This document shows positions 1-10,270 of a stretch of 10,517 nucleotides of DNA, piece after piece. The notes beneath the pieces are model-generated. The model searched no databases and had not been told where the DNA came from. It saw nothing but the letters and a program-made list of their open reading frames with translations. The translations under genes were made by a program, and so were the position numbers. Source of the stretch: a virus (Duplodnaviria > Heunggongvirae > Uroviricota > Caudoviricetes); IMG/VR virus record IMGVR_UViG_2585427755_000006. The stretch is one strand, 5' to 3'. Every line of letters starts with the position of its first letter. The stretch's first letter is position 1.

Positions 1-91
1 TAGACTGGCCCCCTGAATCTCCAGACAACCAATATCACTTAAATAAGTGATAGTCTTAATACTAGTTTTTAGACTAGTCATTGGAGAGCAG

Positions 92-457
92 ATGATTGAT
101 GTCTTAGGACCGGAGAAACGCAGACGGCGTACTACACAGGAAAAGATCGCTATTGTTCAGCAGAGTTTTGAACCGGGAATGACGGTCTCCCTTGTTGCCC
201 GGCAACACGGTGTGGCAGCCAGCCAGTTATTTCTCTGGCGCAAGCAATACCAGGAGGGAAGTCTTACTGCTGTGGCCGCAGGAGAGCAGGTCGTTCCTGC
301 CTCTGAACTTGCTGCTGCCATGAAGCAGATTAAAGAACTCCAGCGCCTGCTCGGCAAAAAAACGATGGAAAATGAACTCCTTAAAGAAGCCGTTGAATAC
401 GGGCGTGCAAAAAAGTGGATAGCGCACGCGCCCTTATTGCCCGGGGATGGGGAGTAA
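92..457 (+). CDS. insC: IS2 transposase OrfA (InsC), 121 aa, HTH DNA-binding
   Basis: ATG at 92 after GGAGAG RBS. Translation [40 protein letters not shown]... matches recalled InsC. The track ORF from 47 is an upstream GTG extension. Confidence 0.9.
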
Positions 458-1320
458 GCTTAGTCAGCCGTTGTCTCCGGGTGTCGCGTGCGCAGTTGCA
501 CGTAATTCTCAGACGAACCGATGACTGGAAAGATGGTCGCCGCAGCCGTCACTCAGATGATACGGATGTGCTTCTCCGTATACACCATGTTATCGGAGAG
601 CTGCCCACGTATGGTTATCGTCGGGTATGGGCGCTGCTTCGCAGACAGGCCGAACTTGATGGTATGCCTGCGATCAATGCCAAACGTGTTTACCGGATCA
701 TGCGCCAGAATGCGCTGTTGCTTGAGCGAAAAACCGCTGTACCGCCATCGAAACGGGCACATACTGGCAAAGTGGCCGTGAAAGAAAGCAATCAACGATG
801 GTGCTCTGACGGGTTCGAGTTCCGCTGTGATAACGGAGAAAAACTGCGAGTCACGTTCGCGCTGGACTGCTGTGACCGTGAGGCACTGCACTGGGCAGTC
901 ACTACGGGCGGCTTCGACAGTGAAACAGTACAGGACGTAATGCTGGGAGCGGTGGAACGCCGCTTCGGCAACGAGCTTCCGGCGTCTCCAGTAGAGTGGC
1001 TGACGGATAATGGTTCATGCTACCGGGCTAATGAAACACGGCAGTTTGCCCGGATGTTGGGGCTTGAACCGAAGAACACGGCGGTGCGGAGTCCGGAGAG
1101 TAACGGCATAGCAGAGAGCTTCGTGAAAACGATAAAGCGTGACTACATCAGTATCATGCCTAAACCAGACGGGTTAACGGCAGCAAAGAACCTTGCAGAG
1201 GCGTTCGAGCATTATAACGAATGGCATCCGCATAGTGCACTGGGTTATCGCTCGCCACGGGAATATCTGCGGCAGCAGGCCAGTAATGGGTTAAGTGATA
1301 ACAGGTGTCTGGAAATATAG
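415..1320 (+). CDS. insD: IS2 transposase OrfB (InsD), 301 aa, DDE catalytic domain; expressed as InsCD fusion by -1 frameshift
   Basis: Translation [23 protein letters not shown]...NRCLEI matches recalled InsD. Overlaps insC in the -1 frame with slippery CAAAAAAG at 408-415. Confidence 0.9.
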
Positions 1321-1658
1321 GGGCAAATCCACATCCCTTCAATTATACCCTCAGCCTTCTGTAACCTTTTCCCGATATAACCATCAGAGCAGCAATGCTT
1401 ACCTGCCAGTGACATGAATGTCATACCGACTACATAATAATCTACTAATAAATCGTGCAAATCGCTGTTGTTCTTTTTCAGACGGGCCATGCACCCGCAA
1501 ATGATCATCGCGTCATCGTCACAACATTGCGGGCGAGATTTTACTTTTGAAGGAATTAATCCCTTAAAACCGGCGGCAATGGACGACCAGGTCACATCTT
1601 CATGATTATTAGCCGCCCACGCTCCCCAACGCTCAAGAACCATCTGAATATCACGCAT
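1245..1658 (-). pseudogene. quuD: Q-family antiterminator quuD, C-terminally truncated by IS2; first 109 codons intact (1332-1658) then 28 IS2-derived codons to stop at 1245
   Basis: ATG at 1656-1658 with GGAG RBS. Translation [26 protein letters not shown]...KAEGIIEGM matches recalled K-12 QuuD to residue 109. The next codon TGG is the first base of the IS2 right end (1331). The track's MWSKL start is an in-frame TTG and was rejected. Confidence 0.7.
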
Positions 1659-1743: not shown

Positions 1744-1884
1744 TCATACTCCTGCTCCTGTCAGGGTTTTGGCGTAATTCCTCAGTATTCGGTAATCGGT
1801 CAAAACAGAACTGGGGAAACGATATAAGCGCAGGCGCATCCAGCGGTGGCGAAGAAGTTCTGCCATATTAAACTCAAACATCAT
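1744..1884 (-). CDS. ylcG: Small DLP12-type protein YlcG (46 aa)
   Basis: Hand translation [49 protein letters not shown] overlaps the rusA stop (ATGA). Below the track's length cutoff. Confidence 0.55.
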
Positions 1885-2243
1885 TCATTCCCCATTTCGG
1901 TGATGGTCAGTTCCAGCCTCCCACCTTTGGTAACAGGCATCTTCACAACGCGGTAATCAACGACCTGAGCATCATCCAGCCAGAAACCTGCTTTAGTGAG
2001 TGCGTCAAAAGCGGCTTTTTGCAGATTATCCAGGTCACGGCGACGGCGATCCGGCATGTGGCACTCAATGCGGATTTTCACAGGCATAGCCAGGCCGATA
2101 TCCAGCATTGCGTTTTTAATGATTCGGGCGACGTTATCGCGGTATGCCTGCCCCTCTGCGCTGACGTGCGTGCGCCCGCGATTATGGCGGTAATAGCGAT
2201 TATTGCTCGGAGGCCAGGGTAATGTGATGCTGTAGGTATTCAC
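1881..2243 (-). CDS. rusA: Holliday junction resolvase RusA (120 aa)
   Basis: Translation [41 protein letters not shown]... matches recalled RusA. GTG start overlaps ybcO stop (GTGA). Confidence 0.9.
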
Positions 2244-2530
2244 GCCTTAATAACCCCCTCTTTCAGCCAGATAACCTGTGTTCTCGCCATACCTTCCAGC
2301 GCGCATTCTTTTGCATACTCAGCATCGACAAAATGTGTGCGGCGGTCGATTTCGTCGTGACAGGCAGAACATGCGATGGTGGCAATCAGGTCTGGCGGTT
2401 TGATACCGGTACCGCACAATCCAGCCAGCCGGATATGTGCCAGTACAGACGTTTCAGAATTGCCATTACATACGCCAGGGATTCTTACCTGGCATTCCCG
2501 ACCACGCGCTGCTTTTCTCAAATCAGCCAT
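2240..2530 (-). CDS. ybcO: YbcO, DUF1364 phage protein (96 aa)
   Basis: Translation [38 protein letters not shown]...; ATG at 2528-2530 lies inside the ninE 3' end. The track ORF is extended upstream to 2569. Confidence 0.8.
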
Positions 2531-2693
2531 GATTCCTCCTTGCTGCCAGTCGCAACCATTTTTTATCAACCAGGCTGGCGGTATATCCGAGCAGAGTTGG
2601 TATTTCGGATGGCTTCAGCTCAGGTTTACGCTTACGACGATTTGGTACTTTGTAGATGTGTCCGTTCATGACACGAATAAGCGGTGTAGCCAT
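2523..2693 (-). CDS. ninE: NinE (56 aa)
   Basis: Hand translation [59 protein letters not shown] overlaps ybcN stop (TAATG). Below the track cutoff. Confidence 0.75.
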   Translation of the reverse strand: MATPLIRVMNGHIYKVPNRRKRKPELKPSEIPTLLGYTASLVDKKWLRLAARRNHG

Positions 2694-3148
2694 TACGCCT
2701 CCTGCTTGTCGCGCAGCAGCTGGAACTCGCAGCTCTGCGGAATAGTCAGGTGGCAGCCAATATTCATCGCCCAGGCTTCAACCTTACACAGGAAGACATA
2801 CATCTCTCCGGTATCGAGATCGGAGGTATGACGTAATGACTGAATGGTGGTGATTTCACCGGTTACGACATCAACCAGTTCTTTGGTTTCATAACCGAGA
2901 TAAGTGTGTTTGAGAGCATCTTTTACCCAAGCTGGAGTGGCGAACGTTTTACCCCTGCTGATGAGGTATTCACTGATTTCGCTGTACCACATGTGGCTGA
3001 GTGCATTCTGGGAAAGACTGCGTCTCTCGCGCCATGGTTTAAGCACCATGCGAAAGCATTTGCCGTCCTCCAGATAAGGCTGGATCTGCCGACCGATAGA
3101 GGTGAAGTTACCGCGATGCAGTTTGATGCCATCTTGTGGGAAGTTCAC
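2693..3148 (-). CDS. ybcN: YbcN (151 aa), lambdoid nin-region protein
   Basis: Translation [35 protein letters not shown]... matches recalled YbcN. GTG start at 3146-3148 behind a GGAGGTGA Shine-Dalgarno. Confidence 0.85.
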
Positions 3149-3246
3149 GCTTCACCTCCGCAGAGATCAAACGCTGGATGCAAGATATCGCAGGTGCATT
3201 TCTGCATCTGTGAAGGGAGAAGATAGTTTGGATTGTATGTGCGCAT
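3145..3246 (-). CDS. ylcH: Small protein YlcH-like (33 aa)
   Basis: Hand translation [33 protein letters not shown]. Stop overlaps ybcN GTG (GTGA). GGGGA RBS 5 nt upstream of ATG at 3244-3246. Matches the 33-aa ylcH slot upstream of ybcN in K-12. Confidence 0.5.
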
Positions 3247-3342
3247 AAACGTCCCCGTTTAGCGCAGAAGTCACCGGAGTTGTTCAAGCTCCAATGGCAT
3301 GATTATGGCTGGTTGATTATGGGAAATCAAATGTGCTGAAAA

Positions 3343-3849
3343 TTAGTCTGCCAAGTCTTCCTCAGTCACAACTGGGTAATTCCAAATATCAAAAAAAGCT
3401 ATAGCCTCCTGCCATTTGTTCCATAAATTATCAAGTACTTGTGTAGGTTCCGTACTTTTAAAAACAGAATCAGCCGCATCACCGTTATGAACTTCCTCGT
3501 ACAGTTCCATTATTAGCAGATTAACAAAGTACTGTTTCAACATTAATGCCTGATTACCTTCTTTCTGCTGGCTATCCTGCTTGATGATCTCCATCGCCCG
3601 TACCAGGCACCTGATGATATCCGCTGCATCATTAACGCTCCATTCAGATCCGCGCTTATCTGTAGCTGATGTATTGGCTCTCTCAGCGCAAGCCTTTAAA
3701 GACTCATAAAGGTAAACTCTATTTTGTAGCTGCAGCGCTTTTTTTGACGTGTACCAACTTGCAAGCGCCGACCCCGCTGCGGCTAATGTGCCAAACGCAG
3801 AAATGCCTGCTGCTATTGCACTTAAGTCGGCACTGTCAAAGTTCCACAT
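3343..3849 (-). CDS. Hypothetical 168-aa protein with a single predicted N-terminal transmembrane helix (AIAAGISAFGTLAAAGSALASWY) and an acidic C-terminal domain; no recognised family
   Basis: Clean ORF with ATG at 3847-3849 and AAGGTG RBS. Looks lower in GC than the flanking nin genes (by eye). Sits where K-12 DLP12 has ybcL/ybcM. Confidence 0.7.
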   Translation of the reverse strand: MWNFDSADLSAIAAGISAFGTLAAAGSALASWYTSKKALQLQNRVYLYESLKACAERANTSATDKRGSEWSVNDAADIIRCLVRAMEIIKQDSQQKEGNQALMLKQYFVNLLIMELYEEVHNGDAADSVFKSTEPTQVLDNLWNKWQEAIAFFDIWNYPVVTEEDLAD

Positions 3850-3881
3850 TATCGTTACACCTTATATAAATACCCCTCAGT

Positions 3882-3910
3882 AATATCCAATAAGGTATGT
3901 GAACAATCAA
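3882..3910 (-). promoter_or_regulatory. Candidate sigma70 promoter for the 168-aa gene (-35 TTGATT, 17-bp spacer, -10 GATATT)
   Basis: Minus-strand TTGATTGTTCACATACCTTATTGGATATT about 35 bp upstream of the ATG, directly downstream of the terminator at 4026-4068. Confidence 0.3.
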
Positions 3911-4025
3911 TATAATTTTATCCGTATCGGCACATAGCGATTTGAATGCTACTGGTAATGGTGTCTTTTAGATTATTTCGTCCAGTTTACAGCACCCGTA
4001 TTTTATGAAATGGACTCGCACATTA

Positions 4026-4068
4026 CCCCAAAAAATGCCAGCACTTCCGTCATCGTAGAATGCTGGCA
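4026..4068 (-). terminator. Rho-independent terminator after the 107-aa gene
   Basis: Inverted repeat TGCCAGCA (4036-4043) / TGCTGGCA (4061-4068) followed on the minus strand by TTTTTT (plus-strand A-run 4030-4035), about 20 bp past the stop at 4088. Confidence 0.5.
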
Positions 4069-4087
4069 GTATTTCTAACTAGTGACT

Positions 4088-4411
4088 TTATTGCAACAGA
4101 TTCTGACGGAAATATGGTAACACTCGACTCCACTTATCATCCAGCCACGGCTGGAATTTTACATGTGCCGTTTCTCTGGCGAGGATTGCTCGCGCTCTGG
4201 TGAGTATCTGGGGATATTCTTGCTCGATGGAAGTGAAGCGACCAGCTTCACGATGCTCCGCAACCTGAAGAAGGGGAGTAACGTTCTGGCAGGCGGTTAA
4301 CATCGCATCCCCTGCTCGCCATAACCAGGCGAGTGTGCAAAGTTCGTTATCAGTGAATTGTTTTGTGATTGGGAATTGTTGAACTGCTAGAACGAGAACG
4401 CCAGCATCCAT
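4088..4411 (-). CDS. Hypothetical 107-aa soluble protein; no recognised family
   Basis: ORF MDAGVLVLAVQQFPITKQFTDNELCTLAWLWRAGD... with ATG at 4409-4411 and GGGA RBS. Flanked by its own candidate extended -10 promoter and its own terminator. Confidence 0.65.
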   Translation of the reverse strand: MDAGVLVLAVQQFPITKQFTDNELCTLAWLWRAGDAMLTACQNVTPLLQVAEHREAGRFTSIEQEYPQILTRARAILARETAHVKFQPWLDDKWSRVLPYFRQNLLQ

Positions 4412-4488
4412 TGGCAGTCCCTATAGTAAAACCATAGCTCAGGACGCTTCGTTCAGGATAGATAATTTTATTGTACTTACCTAACTTT

Positions 4489-4500
4489 CTTACTATAGCA
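4489..4500 (-). promoter_or_regulatory. Candidate extended -10 promoter (TGcTATAGT) for the 107-aa gene
   Basis: Minus-strand TGCTATAGT (plus 4492-4500) about 80 bp upstream of the ATG. The -35 is weak, as is common for extended -10 promoters. Confidence 0.3.
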
Positions 4501-4522
4501 CGGTTGAAAAAGTGATTATTAC

Positions 4523-6049
4523 TCAAAAATAAACCTCACCATCAACCATATATTTGAGAGTACTTATCGCCTGCTGGGCGGATATTGTTTTCATTAAAGG
4601 ATAGTGTTTAAAAACAATGCCATTCATAAAATAGATATCACAGGTTTTATTATCTGTATTGATTATGATTTTTTCGAATGTTTTATAGGCAAGTGTACGA
4701 CATAGCTCTCGCCCATTTTTACTGGTTAAGTCAATAGCATGAAAATCACCAAGTGAACTCACCGCTTTACTCTTCAAAGTTTTTAATGATACCGAAGCCC
4801 TTCGTAATTCCTTATCTAATACTCTGATTTTTTCTGCTATAGCGGTAACTTCAGGCGCAACAGATAATGCAGCAATTAAATTATTAATTTTCATCTGGAG
4901 CTCAATAATTTTCAACTCTAAAGTTTCATTAGCATCTTTCTTGTTTTCAACTGGTTGGATTTTGCTACAATTAAAAAGCAACTCATTAATGATATTATAA
5001 TCAACCAAATCTCTCTTTATTGATGGCCTGTCACATCGATGCAGTCTTCTCATCGGACAAACATAATAGCCATGCAAACTTCCAGATACCGCATGAATAA
5101 TCATGGTATTACCACAAGCCTCGCACTTCATAACTGTTCGAAGTAGATTTATCAACATAGGATTTTTGCTACTATTGCTAATACCAAAAGGTGCCAACCG
5201 AATTTCCTGCACAGCGTAAAACAAATCATCTGATATGACTCTGGGATAATAGCCAGCGATTTCACTTATTCCTTTACCTCTTGCACGATATGAAGGTACG
5301 CATATACCTATCAGAGCTTTATTCGCTAATAATTTTTCAATTACAGAAGGCCCCCATGCACTTTCTTTTCCTGAGAAATTTTTTACAGCATGATCATTTA
5401 AATACTTGGCTATTGCATTCAATGAGCGCCTTTCCATCCTGAGTTTAAAAATTAGCTCAATAGTTTTCACCCTGTCGGGGTCTGGAACAAAAGCCGTTCT
5501 TTTGTCATCTAAGGATAGCCATCTAGGACAAGACGCCGTCATAATCGTACCTGATTCCAGTGCATCCTGCCGTTTTTTCTTCCATGATAATTTAACCCGA
5601 CTTGACTTTATCTCGCTTTCTTCATTTGCCCTTTGTGCTATAAGTATGGCTTTTATTAATGAATATGGCTCATTCAAAGAGTCAATATTATAGACTGTAT
5701 TGTCGCAAAGAGTTATAACATCAATACCGTGATTCAAAATCAATTTCAGACGTTCAATCGCTTCACCGACTTTTTCTCTTGAAAGCCTGTCCAGACTTTC
5801 AACTAACAATGTAGTTCCTGGCAATATATAACCATGCTCTATAGCATCTAAAAATTCCGAAAAAGCTCCTGATTGTGCATGCTTTCCTTTGAATGCACTT
5901 AATCCTAAATCTTCATATGTTATGGTATCAAGATAATAATCACTATTTACCTTTAACCATTCAGCAATAAGTCTTCTCTGTCGGTTTAATGAGTCGCCAG
6001 ACATCTGACCTGGTGATGAAAATCGCATATATGCTATGGCTTTTTTCAT
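4523..6049 (-). CDS. ybcK: Large serine recombinase YbcK (508 aa)
   Basis: N-terminal resolvase-type catalytic motif AYMRFSSPGQ, C-terminal cysteine cluster CEACGNTMIIH...YYVCPMRRLHRCD, and a match to recalled K-12 YbcK. AGGTG RBS. AT-rich. Confidence 0.9.
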   Translation of the reverse strand: MKKAIAYMRFSSPGQMSGDSLNRQRRLIAEWLKVNSDYYLDTITYEDLGLSAFKGKHAQSGAFSEFLDAIEHGYILPGTTLLVESLDRLSREKVGEAIERLKLILNHGIDVITLCDNTVYNIDSLNEPYSLIKAILIAQRANEESEIKSSRVKLSWKKKRQDALESGTIMTASCPRWLSLDDKRTAFVPDPDRVKTIELIFKLRMERRSLNAIAKYLNDHAVKNFSGKESAWGPSVIEKLLANKALIGICVPSYRARGKGISEIAGYYPRVISDDLFYAVQEIRLAPFGISNSSKNPMLINLLRTVMKCEACGNTMIIHAVSGSLHGYYVCPMRRLHRCDRPSIKRDLVDYNIINELLFNCSKIQPVENKKDANETLELKIIELQMKINNLIAALSVAPEVTAIAEKIRVLDKELRRASVSLKTLKSKAVSSLGDFHAIDLTSKNGRELCRTLAYKTFEKIIINTDNKTCDIYFMNGIVFKHYPLMKTISAQQAISTLKYMVDGEVYF

Positions 6050-6230
6050 GGTGACACCTGCTAACGTATGTTTTTATAAACCTTAGTGGTGAGATATAAT
6101 TTTTGTTTAATTTTTATTTAAAAAGACAATTAAGGTCACATTATCTTGAATATACAACAATAATCGTATTGCAATTTTCTTACACCATAATCTTGAAAGC
6201 ACAAAAGAATACATAAAAAAAATAAAGACA

Positions 6231-6276
6231 TTAACAAAAAGCATAAAACGAGGCTCATATAAATATAAGAGCCTCC
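6231..6276 (-). terminator. Rho-independent terminator downstream of emrE
   Basis: GAGGCTC (6250-6256) / GAGCCTC (6269-6275) stem with a 12-nt AU loop, followed on the minus strand by GTTTTATGCTTTTTGTT. Confidence 0.4.
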
Positions 6277-6306
6277 ATATTTTAGTCGTTTAGAAACAAA
6301 TTATTT

Positions 6307-6639
6307 TTAATGTGGTGTGCTTCGTGACAATAAATTAATAACCAACACTCCGGCACAAATCAACATCATGCCTATAATGGCTGGCATGTCCAGCCGTTGG
6401 CCGAAAAATCCCCATGACAGTAAGCTAATCAGGACAATACCGACTCCTGACCAGATAGCATAAGCAATCCCTGTAGGAATATAAGCCAGCGTCTGCGCTA
6501 ATAACCAGAATGATGCACAATAACAAATAATTGTACCAACAGATGGCCATAACCGTGTAAAACCTTCTGAAAACTTCATTAAGGTTGTACCAATGACCTC
6601 TGCAAGTATTGCACCACCAAGATAAATATAAGGGTTCAT
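6307..6639 (-). CDS. emrE: SMR-family multidrug efflux transporter EmrE (110 aa, 4 TM helices)
   Basis: Translation MNPYIYLGGAILAEVIGTTLMKFSEGFTRLWPSVG... matches recalled EmrE. The track ORF carries an 18-codon upstream extension. Confidence 0.9.
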   Translation of the reverse strand: MNPYIYLGGAILAEVIGTTLMKFSEGFTRLWPSVGTIICYCASFWLLAQTLAYIPTGIAYAIWSGVGIVLISLLSWGFFGQRLDMPAIIGMMLICAGVLVINLLSRSTPH

Positions 6640-6654
6640 AGCATATTCTTTCCT

Positions 6655-6689
6655 GTTCAAACTGGAGAGAATTGTACTACAGTTTGAAC
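6655..6689. repeat. Perfect 10-bp inverted repeat GTTCAAACTG/CAGTTTGAAC with a 15-nt spacer, between the ren stop and emrE start
   Basis: Read directly from the sequence at 6655-6664 and 6680-6689. Ends about 16 nt before the emrE ATG. No T-tract, so not a terminator. Confidence 0.5.
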
Positions 6690-6706
6690 TCAACTCACCT
6701 GTTTCA

Positions 6707-7009
6707 TCATTGTGTACCCATTGATGTTCTTTTATATACCCTCAATACCCGTTTCATCGCGGCACTCTGGCGACACTCCTTAAAAATCAGATTCGTGCTC
6801 ACCTTTCCTTCCCGTTCTTCTCTGGTAGCGAACCGGTAATACACCGTTCGCCAGACCTTACCATCAACGACCAGGATTCCTGCCCGCGCCATTTTAGCCG
6901 CAGCCTGATTTATGCTGGTTACGGTTGCGCCTGTTACCGCGGCAACGTCCTGTGCACAGAAGCTCTTATGCGTCCCCAGGTAATGAATAATTGCCTCTTT
7001 GCCCGTCAT
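6707..7009 (-). CDS. renD: Lambda Ren-like protein (100 aa)
   Basis: Translation MTGKEAIIHYLGTHKSFCAQDVAAVTGATVTSINQAAAKMARAG... matches recalled lambda Ren. ATG overlaps an upstream in-frame stop (ATGA), as at the lambda P/ren junction. Confidence 0.8.
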   Translation of the reverse strand: MTGKEAIIHYLGTHKSFCAQDVAAVTGATVTSINQAAAKMARAGILVVDGKVWRTVYYRFATREEREGKVSTNLIFKECRQSAAMKRVLRVYKRTSMGTQ

Positions 7010-7104
7010 ACACTTGCTCCTTTCAGTCCGAACTTAGCTTTAATTTCTGCGATCTTCGCCAGAGCCTGTGCACGATTTAGAGGTTTAGGCGCAATCACTT
7101 TCGT
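7006..7104 (-). pseudogene. Probable 3' remnant of replication gene P (last ~32 codons)
   Basis: Minus-strand frame open from 7104 to the stop at 7006-7008, translating ...TKVIAPKPLNRAQALAKIAEIKAKFGLKGASV*. No start codon; an in-frame TAG sits at 7105-7107. Assignment to P is from the lambda P-ren gene order and coupling, not from a verified match. Confidence 0.4.
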
Positions 7105-7213
7105 CTACTCCGTTACAAAGCGAGGCTGGGTATTTCCCGGCCTTTCTGTAATCCGAAATCCCCTGAAAGCACAGCGGCTGGCTGAGGAGATAAATAATAA
7201 ATGGGGGGGCTGT

Positions 7214-7405
7214 ATGCACAAAGCATCTACCGTTAAGTTAAGAACGAGTATCGAGATGGCACATAGCCTCGCTCAAATTGGAGTCAGGTTTGTGCCAATA
7301 CCAGTAGAAACAGACGAAGAATTTCACACGTTAGCCGCATCCCTTTCACAAAAGCTGGAAATGATGGTGGCGAAAGCAGAAGCAGATGAGAGAGACCAGG
7401 TATGA
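7214..7405 (+). CDS. Small 63-aa protein, lambda exo-xis orf63-like by position and size
   Basis: ATG at 7214 behind a GGGGGGG Shine-Dalgarno. Translation MHKASTVKLRTSIEMAHSLAQIGVRFVPIPVETDEEFHTLAASLSQKLEMMVAKAEADERDQV. First in a coupled chain of small genes. Confidence 0.6.
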   Translation: MHKASTVKLRTSIEMAHSLAQIGVRFVPIPVETDEEFHTLAASLSQKLEMMVAKAEADERDQV

Positions 7406-7485
7406 CAACCACTGAATGCATTTTTCTGGCAGCGGGCTTCATATTCTGTGTGCTTATGCTTGCCGACATGGGACTTGTTCAATGA
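7402..7485 (+). CDS. Possible 27-aa hydrophobic micro-protein (MTTTECIFLAAGFIFCVLMLADMGLVQ)
   Basis: ATG overlaps the stop of the upstream gene (ATGA) and its own stop overlaps the next ATG (ATGA). One predicted TM helix. No independent support. Confidence 0.3.
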   Translation: MTTTECIFLAAGFIFCVLMLADMGLVQ

Positions 7486-7697
7486 CACCTCAGCAGGAAA
7501 ACGCCCTTCGCAGCATTGCCCGTCAGGCTAATTCTGAAATCAAAAAAGCCAGACAGCAGTTTCCGGATAAAAACGTCGATGACATTTGCCGTAGCGTACT
7601 GAAGAAGCACCGCGAAACGGTAACGCTGATGGGATTCACACCGACTCATTTAAGCCTGGCAATCGGCATGTTAAACGGCGTCTTTAAGGAACGATGA
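7482..7697 (+). CDS. Small 71-aa protein, lambda exo-xis orf61-like by position
   Basis: Translation MTPQQENALRSIARQANSEIKKARQQFPDKNVDDICRSVLKKHRETVTLMGFTPTHLSLAIGMLNGVFKER. The track ORF is extended upstream to 7416. Confidence 0.55.
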   Translation: MTPQQENALRSIARQANSEIKKARQQFPDKNVDDICRSVLKKHRETVTLMGFTPTHLSLAIGMLNGVFKER

Positions 7698-7789
7698 ACA
7701 TGAAAAGCAAAATCATCAGGGAGCTACAGGCTCCTTTTTTATTATTCGCATTCACCCTCAAGCGTATTAACCAACAATTCAGGGATTAA
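7694..7789 (+). CDS. Possible 31-aa micro-ORF (MNMKSKIIRELQAPFLLFAFTLKRINQQFRD)
   Basis: ATG overlaps the upstream stop (ATGA). Fills the gap before the TraR-like gene. Could be chance. Confidence 0.2.
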   Translation: MNMKSKIIRELQAPFLLFAFTLKRINQQFRD

Positions 7790-7795
7790 TGGAAG

Positions 7796-8017
7796 ATGGC
7801 AGACATCATTGATTCAGCATCAGAAATTGAAGAATTACAGCGCAACACAGCAATAAAAATGCGCCGCCTGAACCACCAGGCTATATCTGCCACTCATTGT
7901 TGTGAGTGTGGCGATCCGATAGATGAACGAAGACGCCTGGTCGTTCAGGGTTGTCGGACTTGTGCAAGTTGCCAGGAAGATCTGGAGCTTATCAGTAAAC
8001 AGAGAGGTTCGAAGTGA
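7796..8017 (+). CDS. TraR/DksA-family C4 zinc-finger protein (73 aa), lambda orf73-like
   Basis: CCECGDPIDERRRLVVQGCRTCASCQ gives a C-x2-C...C-x2-C zinc finger after an acidic N-terminal helix, typical of TraR-like RNA polymerase secondary-channel binders. Size and position match lambda orf73. Confidence 0.75.
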   Translation: MADIIDSASEIEELQRNTAIKMRRLNHQAISATHCCECGDPIDERRRLVVQGCRTCASCQEDLELISKQRGSK

Positions 8018-8316
8018 GCGAAATTAACTCTCAGGCACTGCGTGAAGCGGCAGAGCAGGCAATGCATGACGACTGGGGATTTGACGCAGACCTTTTCCAT
8101 GAATTGGTAACACCATCGATTGTGCTGGAACTGCTGGATGAGCGGGAAAGAAACCAGCAATACATCAAACGCCGCGACCAGGAGAACGAGGAAATTGCGC
8201 TAACGGTAGGAAAGCTGCGCGTTGAGCTGGAAGCAGCAAAATCAAAACTCAACGAGCAGCGTGAATATTACGAAGGTGTTATCTCGGATGGAAGTAAGCG
8301 TATTGCTGAACTGTAG
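8014..8316 (+). CDS. Ead/Ea22-like protein (100 aa, coiled-coil C-terminus)
   Basis: GTG start overlapping the upstream stop (GTGA). Translation MSEINSQALREAAEQAMHDDWGFDADLFHELVTPSIVLELLDERERNQQYIKRRDQENEE... matches a recalled Ea22-like family. Confidence 0.55.
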   Translation: MSEINSQALREAAEQAMHDDWGFDADLFHELVTPSIVLELLDERERNQQYIKRRDQENEEIALTVGKLRVELEAAKSKLNEQREYYEGVISDGSKRIAEL

Positions 8317-8566: not shown

Positions 8567-9181
8567 ATGAAAAAATCAACACTAATTTTAGGGCTTACGT
8601 TAATTGTCTCATCTCAAATACCATCGGCAATGGCAAAAAATGAATCAAAACTTTGGGTTGTTGTTGATCGAACGGAAAGACATACCTGCCCTTCAAGTAA
8701 ATGTGGAGTGGCTGGGAAACTATTTTTCAGGGAAGGCGTAGATTTTCTAGAAAAAAAAGGTGAATGGGTTCGTATAACTGAGCCATATTCAGCCTCATGT
8801 GTGGGAGGGGAAAGCGAATATATTAAAGAAGGTAATAAATCCTGCACAAGAAAAAACGGAATCGTTAATGGCAAGTTTTCAGAATGGGTTAAACTTAGTG
8901 ATCTTAGCAGTGAAAGGCCATCAGATCCTGCTGAAAATGCGAGCAGAAATGATACCTTAATCAAAGGATCTGATGACTACCGTATATACAAAAAAGAGTT
9001 TTCTTCGGCAGCTAGGAAGTTAATAAGTGAAGGTGTCTGCACGGAGAGCGATTTTAAGGAAGTTGGAGGGTGGATGGCATCAAGCAATAAGGGTGAAAAC
9101 ATCTATTTCACATATTGCGGAGGAATGACGTTGTCGAACAGAATATATCTAGACGTTAAAAGTGGAAAGACTTTTAGATAA
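8567..9181 (+). CDS. Secreted/periplasmic hypothetical protein (204 aa) with cleavable signal peptide and an SH3b-like N-terminal region
   Basis: Signal peptide MKKSTLILGLTLIVSSQIPSAMA with AxA cleavage motif. The stretch LWVVVDRTERHTCPSSKCGVAGKLFFREGVDFLEKKGEWVRI resembles a bacterial SH3 fold. Six cysteines. AAGGAAA RBS. Lies in the AT-rich island. Confidence 0.7.
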   Translation: MKKSTLILGLTLIVSSQIPSAMAKNESKLWVVVDRTERHTCPSSKCGVAGKLFFREGVDFLEKKGEWVRITEPYSASCVGGESEYIKEGNKSCTRKNGIVNGKFSEWVKLSDLSSERPSDPAENASRNDTLIKGSDDYRIYKKEFSSAARKLISEGVCTESDFKEVGGWMASSNKGENIYFTYCGGMTLSNRIYLDVKSGKTFR

Positions 9182-9474: not shown

Positions 9475-9813
9475 ATGACTAAATCAGCAGCAGAGCGCAA
9501 AGCCGATCAGAGAGCCAAGCAAGCATCATCCGGTATGCGTAAGCTGGAGCTTGTACTTGATGCTCAGGAAATTGAAATGCTGGAGCGTAACTGAGCCACG
9601 CGCCGCTTCAGGCGTGCGCCTTACGAGTTTGGTGAGTACATAGCGTTACTGAGCCGCCAGGATGATGCACGTGTGCGCTGGCGTATAAAATCGATTAGCA
9701 GAAAACGTTGCCGTAAGTGCGGCGAGAGAGTTCCTGTTAATTCATGCCCGTGTAATGGTGACTCACAATACTGGGTGACCAAAGGCTGGCACGAAACAAA
9801 ATTAATGATATAA
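9475..9813 (+). pseudogene. 112-codon reading frame interrupted by one in-frame TGA (9592-9594): 39-aa N-terminal part plus 72-aa C-terminal part with a zinc-ribbon motif
   Basis: ATG at 9475 gives MTKSAAERKADQRAKQASSGMRKLELVLDAQEIEMLERN, then TGA, then the same frame continues ATRRFRRAPYEFGEYIALLSRQDDARVRWRIKSISRKRCRKCGERVPVNSCPCNGDSQYWVTKGWHETKLMI*. No ATG in the second part; an internal GTG at 9673 is the only alternative start. Confidence 0.45.
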
Positions 9814-9841: not shown

Positions 9842-10270
9842 ATGAAATTAGACCAGCAATATCTAAAAGATCTACTTATCGCATTCGAAAAAACTTATGG
9901 CCCTGACACGATGCTTAGTGAACTAGAGGATAATGGCTTTAATAGATATGACCAAAATTTTATTTTCCATATGCGATTATTATGTGACTACGAATTAATA
10001 GTTAGGGTTGATGGAAAACCTGGGTTCGGTCATATAATGTCCAACGAGTTAGGGGAAGGTGTTGAATATAGTTGGCTCGAAGTACCACTGAGGTTGACAG
10101 CAAGAGGGCATGATTTTATTGCTGACTTACGTCAAAAGGAGGTCTGGCAAGCTATAAAAACAAACTTTAAGGATGAGGGAATTGGTACTCTTATGAGTGT
10201 TTCAAAATCACTAGCAAAAGGCTTTGCAAGAAAAAAAATAAAAGATATTACAGGAATAGATATTGAATAA
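9842..10270 (+). CDS. Hypothetical 142-aa protein, prophage cargo, no confirmed family
   Basis: ATG at 9842 with GGAGG RBS (cacGGAGGcggcaATG). Clean AT-rich ORF ending 36 bp before the IS911-like terminus. Confidence 0.7.
   Translation: MKLDQQYLKDLLIAFEKTYGPDTMLSELEDNGFNRYDQNFIFHMRLLCDYELIVRVDGKPGFGHIMSNELGEGVEYSWLEVPLRLTARGHDFIADLRQKEVWQAIKTNFKDEGIGTLMSVSKSLAKGFARKKIKDITGIDIE

Follow-up and report, generated by a model that had tools for sequence, protein, structure and literature searches.

The window analyzed here is a 10,517-nt stretch of DNA from a Caudoviricetes virus record (IMG/VR IMGVR_UViG_2585427755_000006), and its features are collected in Table 1. Our analysis centered on orf73, for which we looked for an upstream in-frame start and found none. 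The translation of this ORF reads MADIIDSASEIEELQRNTAIKMRRLNHQAISATHCCECGDPIDERRRLVVQGCRTCASCQEDLELISKQRGSK. When searched by tblastn against phage genomes, the product matched lambda J02459.1 (30395-30613, minus strand) with 100% identity over 73/73 residues, a result reproduced by direct translation of both sequences. That lambda segment lies between orf61 and ea22 and corresponds to the published orf73, which is unannotated in the old GenBank record; the lambda protein has also been called 'Orf2310' in ribosome-profiling work. Direct comparison of the DNA revealed three nucleotide differences, at window positions 7828, 7978, and 7987, all of them synonymous third-position changes, with no non-synonymous change. 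The match is far beyond chance and, because every residue is identical and all of the DNA changes are synonymous, the ORF is, as judged from its sequence, lambda Orf73 itself, more than a relative of it.

Table 1. Coordinates of the features identified in the window.
Feature	Position	Strand	Description
IS3-family insertion sequence	47-1330	+	Two overlapping transposase ORFs, 47-457 and 415-1320
quuD	~1275-1658	-	Antiterminator gene
DLP12-like right arm	1881-6693		rusA, ybcO, ninE, ybcN, P22AR C-terminal fragment, ybcK, emrE
ren	6707-7009	-	Followed by a short P remnant up to the junction; transcribed away from orf73; separated from its native pR
Chimeric ORF	6968-7405		145 codons; its start lies antisense to the P remnant
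Deletion junction	7085-7087		Lambda-equivalent 40202 (inside P) joined to 31323, 28 nt into orf60a
exo-xis block remnant upstream of orf73	7086-7697	+	orf60a piece, orf63, orf61-like ORF
Predicted intrinsic terminator t1-lambda	7120-7148	+	Within the orf60a remnant; same sequence as published (PMC4195576)
orf63	7214-7405		63 codons, intact
orf61-like ORF	7416-7697	+	93 codons; altered start and C terminus
Predicted intrinsic terminator t2-lambda	7718-7746	+	8-bp stem, 3-nt loop, T-run; 50-78 nt upstream of orf73
orf73	7796-8017	+	73 codons, ATG to TGA; predicted TraR-type RNA polymerase secondary-channel protein
Truncated ea22	8014-8316	+	100 codons (182 in lambda); only the N-terminal part left
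ORF in accessory slot	8567-9181		204 codons
ORF near the DUF2513 gene	~9475-9813		RefSeq pseudogene, internal stop
DUF2513 protein	9842-10270		Accessory gene between ea22 and xis

Random substitutions in the orf73 ORF would be synonymous in only 22-27% of cases, and three of three would be synonymous by chance with a probability of 0.01-0.02. Three synonymous changes with no non-synonymous one point to purifying selection at some stage in the divergence of the window and lambda copies, selection that may date from a time when the phage was alive. DNA resembling orf73 is present in 3316 of 5426 complete Escherichia coli genomes (~61%), at up to six copies per genome, and the examples listed are annotated in RefSeq as TraR/DksA family regulators. 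Minus-strand ORFs overlapping the region (7945-8160 and 8031-8252) matched no Pfam family and were dropped as coding candidates.

The first-pass annotation had described the 73-residue product as a TraR/DksA protein with a C4 zinc finger, and profile searches bear this out. Orf73 matches the Pfam family PF01258 (zf-dskA_traR) over residues 33-64 with 34.8 bits against a gathering cut-off of 24.9 (E = 1.6e-8), and, along its whole length, PHROG 54, 'DksA-like zinc-finger protein' (E = 7.8e-25). The zinc finger has a CxxC-17-CxxC arrangement, in which C35-C-E-C38 and C56-A-S-C59 are separated by 17 residues. Among solved structures, the best sequence matches are 5w1s_M and 6n57_M (E = 2e-5), the TraR chains of RNA polymerase complexes 5W1S and 6N57, with YbiI next. 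In length, too, the protein corresponds to the TraR-type short homologues, having 73 residues and a single N-terminal helix with no coiled coil; this group comprises TraR, lambda Orf73, P2 Orf82, and others, and its members, at ~73 residues, represent the C-terminal half of DksA (PMC9239242). Orf73 falls below the cut-off of NCBIfam TIGR02419, the phage/conjugal plasmid C4 zinc finger, TraR family model (54.7 versus 59.7 bits, E = 1.1e-14), in an alignment that covers the model in full (residues 3-64 to positions 1-64 of 64). This shortfall is narrow and the threshold conservative. Against NF010268, the equivalog model for F-plasmid TraR, the score is 28.3 bits with a cut-off of 108, and we dropped the assignment of Orf73 as an F-TraR orthologue on the basis of this score and 34% identity.

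To compare the protein with its better known relatives, we aligned it with F TraR, taken from a plasmid record, and with E. coli DksA, the sequence of which was verified against 1TJL. The alignment with TraR and lambda Orf73 had been proposed in the first-pass annotation as a check, and besides the 73/73 identity to Orf73 it shows that the acidic tip and the zinc-finger spacing are kept relative to TraR. The tip is present as D3-I-I-D6-S-A8, a DxxDxA motif in which D3, D6, and A8 align with D3, D6, and A8 of TraR and with D71, D74, and A76 of DksA. The zinc cysteines align with C37, C40, C58, and C61 of TraR and with the DksA cysteines, and the R46-R47 pair aligns with R48-R49 of TraR, of which R48 touches the rim helices and R49 touches beta' Si3 (PMC9239242). 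E64 and K68 are invariant in the four-way alignment as well as in the Orf73 subfamily. In 34 subfamily sequences (57-97% identity), D6, A8, C35, C56, R46, E64, and K68 are invariant, conservation reaches 90% or more at D3, C38, C59, C53, and R47, and C36 varies.

F TraR (5W1S, 6N57) thus shares with Orf73 its length of 73 residues, the helix bearing DxxDxA, a C4 zinc-finger domain with the arginine pair, and a C-terminal helix, yet the two proteins are only 32-34% identical, and Orf73 carries two extra cysteines, C36 and C53, at TraR positions 38 and 55. According to the authors who purified Orf73, these cysteines may alter the globular domain (PMC9239242). The genes also differ in setting, orf73 being phage-borne and driven by pL, whereas traR lies in the tra operon. 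With DksA, Orf73 has in common the Pfam zinc-finger domain, the aligned acidic tip, and, as shown by competition, the same site on RNA polymerase; its alignment spans DksA residues ~70 to 151, and it is half the length, has one N-terminal helix in place of the coiled coil, and does not need ppGpp. Phage P2 Orf82 is a tested TraR homologue with a C4 zinc finger that lacks A8 and is ~5-fold less active on rrnB P1. Within the DksA/TraR family, Orf73 falls in the short TraR-type branch, as a TraR homologue that, at the promoters it inhibits, acts as TraR and DksA do but is distinct from TraR.

An AlphaFold2 model of Orf73 built from the 34-sequence subfamily alignment (mean pLDDT 75.8) displays a helix at residues 6-28, a globular segment, and a second helix at residues 57-71. 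In a Foldseek search of the PDB with this model, the top match was 6n57_M (probability 1.00, TM 0.52), followed by YbiI, TraR of 5w1s, and DksA. The E value of the top match is only 6e-3, and its rmsd is high (10.5 Å), because the helix angles differ, and the same kind of difference has been reported between models of free Orf73 and bound TraR (PMC8614690). YbiI of E. coli (PDB 2KGO), the second-best structural match, has a C4 zinc finger like that of Orf73 and is longer and chromosomally encoded.

Since the window protein is identical in all 73 residues to the protein purified and characterized by Gopalkrishnan et al. in 2022 (PMC9239242), the published biochemistry is directly applicable to it. 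In that work, lambda Orf73 competed with DksA for RNA polymerase, inhibited rrnB P1 with an IC50 of ~50 nM without ppGpp, a value equal to that of TraR, and also inhibited rpsT P2; the D3N or D6N substitution abolished activity (PMC9239242). Inhibition of rRNA promoters by F TraR is likewise independent of ppGpp and has a similar IC50. When pL in a defective lysogen, or pBAD, drove Orf73 production, pre-rRNA and rpsT mRNA levels fell and growth slowed, and induced Orf73 complemented a dksA-null strain on minimal medium (PMC9239242). The gene is expressed early from pL, and phage yield after induction was 3- to 4-fold higher with the wild-type allele than with D3A/D6A or deletion alleles (PMC9239242).

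The mimicry of DksA/ppGpp effects on transcription initiation that had been ascribed to the protein therefore holds in part. Inhibition of rrnB P1 and rpsT P2 and complementation of the dksA-null strain agree with it, but thrABC, argI, and rpoH P3, which TraR activates, showed little or no activation by purified Orf73 (PMC9239242). These same data decide against a reading in which Orf73 belongs to the DksA/TraR Pfam family only through a generic C4 zinc finger and has no action on RNA polymerase. The scores below the TIGR02419 cut-off and far below the NF010268 cut-off would be compatible with such a protein, and some zinc-finger family members, for instance some of intermediate length, are inactive. 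However, the inactive members are without DxxDxA and the C-terminal helix, both of which Orf73 has, and RNA polymerase binding and transcription inhibition by the identical protein (PMC9239242) refute this reading, to which we assign almost no probability.

By what means Orf73 would act has been modeled on TraR. The contacts proposed for it, drawn from TraR cryo-EM, are between the tip and the active-site region, between the globular domain and the rim helices plus beta' Si3, and between the C-terminal helix and beta Si1 (PMC9239242). In their detail these contacts are modeled on TraR-RNA polymerase cryo-EM structures. If made, the protein would insert its N-terminal helix into the secondary channel of RNA polymerase, with the D3xxD6xA8 tip pointing toward the active site and the zinc-finger domain placed at the channel rim. 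The C-terminal helix, residues 57-71 in our model, is predicted to contact beta Si1, the beta lobe insertion, as in TraR. Bound in this way, Orf73 would destabilize open complexes at rRNA and ribosomal-protein promoters without ppGpp, and this destabilization would slow host growth and, in a live phage, lead to a larger burst size.

A different main role has been considered for the gene, in which Orf73 blocks the initiation of host DNA replication (the 'bin' phenotype, attributed to orf73, ea22, ea8.5, and orf55) or biases the choice between lysis and lysogeny, and rRNA reprogramming is secondary. Earlier genetics tied the block containing orf73 to inhibited replication initiation, and deletion of orf73 to lower host survival and lower lysogenization (cited in PMC9239242 and PMC8614690), and at high concentration Orf73 inhibits dnaA P2 and P1 in vitro with IC50 values of ~0.4 and 1.7 µM (PMC9239242). 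In vivo, however, dnaA mRNA from cells with a single-copy prophage was weakly reduced if at all, whereas rrn and rpsT transcripts were clearly reduced (PMC9239242). The bin and lysogeny phenotypes are explicable as downstream consequences of RNA polymerase binding, and among the partner genes, ea22 is truncated in the window and the others are missing. We regard this role as very unlikely to be the main one.

Having established what the protein is, we turn to where its gene lies. A blastn comparison with the whole lambda genome aligned window positions 6734-7087 with lambda 40555-40202, comprising ren and the last 82 nt of P, at 93.5% identity, and positions 7086-8313 with lambda 31323-30096 at 97.6% identity over 1.2 kb. 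Because these blocks end at 40202 and 31323, the equivalent of lambda 31324-40201 (8.9 kb) is missing, including exo, bet, gam, kil, cIII, N, pL, rex, cI, pR, cro, cII, O, and most of P. At the junction, the minus-strand P remnant meets the 5'-truncated orf60a on the plus strand, with the immunity, replication-initiation, and red regions lost. The gene sets flanking the junction point away from each other, and neither pL nor pR lies between them.

Around orf73 itself, the order of genes is that of lambda. The gene keeps its position between orf61 and ea22 in a flank collinear with lambda 31323-30096, with orf60a, orf63, and orf61 upstream, the same predicted terminator t2 ahead of it, and ea22 downstream. 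As in lambda, ea22 begins at a GTG that shares bases with the orf73 stop (GTGA), an arrangement that suggests translational coupling. The window differs from lambda in the three synonymous substitutions, in the deletion of the pL operon from exo to N together with pL, in the truncation of orf60a and ea22, and in an altered orf61. The ea22 gene ends where lambda homology stops (8313), a mosaic boundary. A 1-nt insertion relative to lambda at 7202 places the 5'-truncated orf60a (DUF1317) in frame with orf63 (DUF1382), and this extra base creates the chimeric ORF listed in Table 1; RefSeq annotates orf60a as frameshifted and orf63 as intact. Compared with the 61-codon lambda gene, the orf61 homologue (7386-7697) has a stop at lambda codon 10, and one base is absent at 7541/7542. 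The resulting orf61-like ORF has a longer and different C terminus and matches PHROG 303, a 101-position profile, with E = 4.7e-36. The long form may perhaps be the usual one and lambda Orf61 a shortened variant. We also considered this ORF as a fusion of orf61 with lambda orf55 and dropped the idea; orf55 is the last gene of the exo-xis region (PMC8614690) and does not lie between orf61 and orf73.

E. coli strain 1409 (NZ_CP063369) carries a locus that is 100% identical over 1.9 kb to the junction-bearing region of the window. The RefSeq gene order in this strain is ren, a P fragment, a frameshifted DUF1317 gene, a DUF1382 gene, a hypothetical protein, a TraR/DksA regulator, and ead/Ea22 without its C terminus, beyond which lie accessory genes and then the excisionase, the integrase, and ybhC. 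The first-pass annotation had placed the gene in a cryptic prophage, and this setting is borne out. With no cI, cro, N, or O and only a fragment of P, the element is, unlike lambda, a non-inducible, non-replicating defective lambdoid prophage remnant next to ybhC.

In lambda, pL and N-mediated read-through are required for orf73 expression. By the 8.9-kb-equivalent deletion, the window copy is cut off from both pL and N-dependent antitermination, and it stands behind two predicted terminators. Both of these lie between the deletion junction and the orf73 start codon. The t2 hairpin, at 7718-7736 and followed by TTTTTTATTATT, is identical to the published 't2-lambda' prediction (PMC4195576). 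Folding of the RNA from 7698-7800 forms this terminator hairpin; the segment as a whole is not unusually stable (z = -1.5), so it shows no sign of a riboswitch-like leader upstream of orf73, and an Rfam scan of the whole window gave no match at gathering thresholds. All genes farther upstream run in the opposite direction. A crude scan for consensus sigma-70 sites found none on the plus strand between 6165 and 7796, and the number of promoter-like sites across the window (21) is no excess over that expected from shuffled sequences (20.7).

One candidate promoter has been described at this position. For lambda and phi24B, a promoter 'p1' immediately ahead of orf73 has been proposed from a BPROM prediction (PMC4195576), and in the window it corresponds to TCATCA at 7711-7716 and TTTTATTAT at 7738-7746, overlapping terminator t2. 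Between the hexamers TCATCA (7711-7716) and TATTAT (7741-7746) lies a spacer of 24 nt, or of 21 nt if TTTTAT is taken, which is outside the sigma-70 range. Given this spacer and the overlap with the terminator hairpin, we did not accept p1 as evidence of a promoter. The defective-prophage construct used in the biochemical study deleted the region from cIII up to the orf73 start and so does not address p1 (PMC9239242). With pL and N deleted, two predicted terminators ahead of the gene, and no convincing sigma-70 promoter, expression of orf73 is doubtful, and in the window the gene is probably silent or expressed at a very low level.

These features bear on the possibility that orf73 is expressed here from a pL-independent promoter, either p1 or a new one near the junction, and that its product, once domesticated, restrains ribosome synthesis in the host without ppGpp, for instance during oxidative stress. 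The ORF is intact while its neighbors are damaged (orf60a truncated and frameshifted, ea22 truncated, P reduced to a fragment), and the three-of-three synonymous changes would fit continued function. Lambda and phi24B share the same BPROM p1 sequence, and in phi24B induced with H2O2, orf73/ea22 mRNA was high, above that of the other exo-xis genes (PMC4195576). Set against this are the p1 spacing and the lack of a plus-strand site in our scan. Only 3 of 5426 complete genomes contain the locus with this junction, and their copies match the 1.9-kb query at 100% identity, which argues that the deletion is recent and that the intactness of orf73 therefore requires no selection in the host. Constitutive expression would, moreover, be costly because Orf73 slows growth. 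We consider domestication unlikely, and the narrower proposal that a weak or stress-responsive internal promoter in the p1 region (7711-7746) drives transcription of orf73, through which the host throttles rRNA synthesis independently of ppGpp, quite unlikely.

We instead favor, with high confidence, the explanation that the locus holds the lambda orf73 allele in a defective prophage, encoding a TraR-like inhibitor of RNA polymerase if the protein is made and likely to be silent here. In terms of sequence evidence, the window copy is most likely an intact passenger gene and not an active host regulator. The earlier suggestion that the prophage could reprogram host transcription if the operon is expressed is thus upheld as to the capability of Orf73, but its condition is doubtful, pL and N being deleted, two predicted terminators intervening, and a canonical promoter not being found from the junction to the start codon.

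The protein, its mechanism, and its phenotypes were already known from the 2022 publication, and the new part is the genomic context. As a finding, the identification is correct but ordinary, and its value goes little beyond the right annotation. In many E. coli strains, prophages in various states of preservation contribute 1-6 copies of an inhibitor that acts strongly on ribosomal promoters without ppGpp. If promoter-less copies of orf73 are expressed, they would add an extra layer of growth-rate control; if not, they are inert cargo.

Beyond the lambda-like segment, the right arm of the remnant is DLP12-like and also contains quuD; within it, ybcK encodes a 508-residue serine recombinase and emrE a multidrug transporter. 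At the left end, as seen in strain 1409, the excisionase and integrase genes adjoin ybhC. With this right arm and this left end, the remnant is therefore a mosaic of DLP12-type and lambda-type modules. The loci closest to the window (strains 1409 and ET358 and record OY754353) are without the IS3-family element. Since homology with the IS-free strain 1409 starts at 1331, the element has replaced the 3' end of quuD; the exact IS3/quuD junction was not found in one piece in the collection of complete E. coli genomes. Downstream of ea22, a variable accessory slot is filled by the ORF at 8567-9181, which has a hydrophobic, signal-peptide-like N terminus (MKKSTLILGLTLIVSSQIPSAMA) and, over its full length, matches PHROG 8310, of unknown function (E = 7e-135), with no Pfam match. 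The DUF2513 protein is identified by Pfam (E = 1.3e-10) and PHROG 585.
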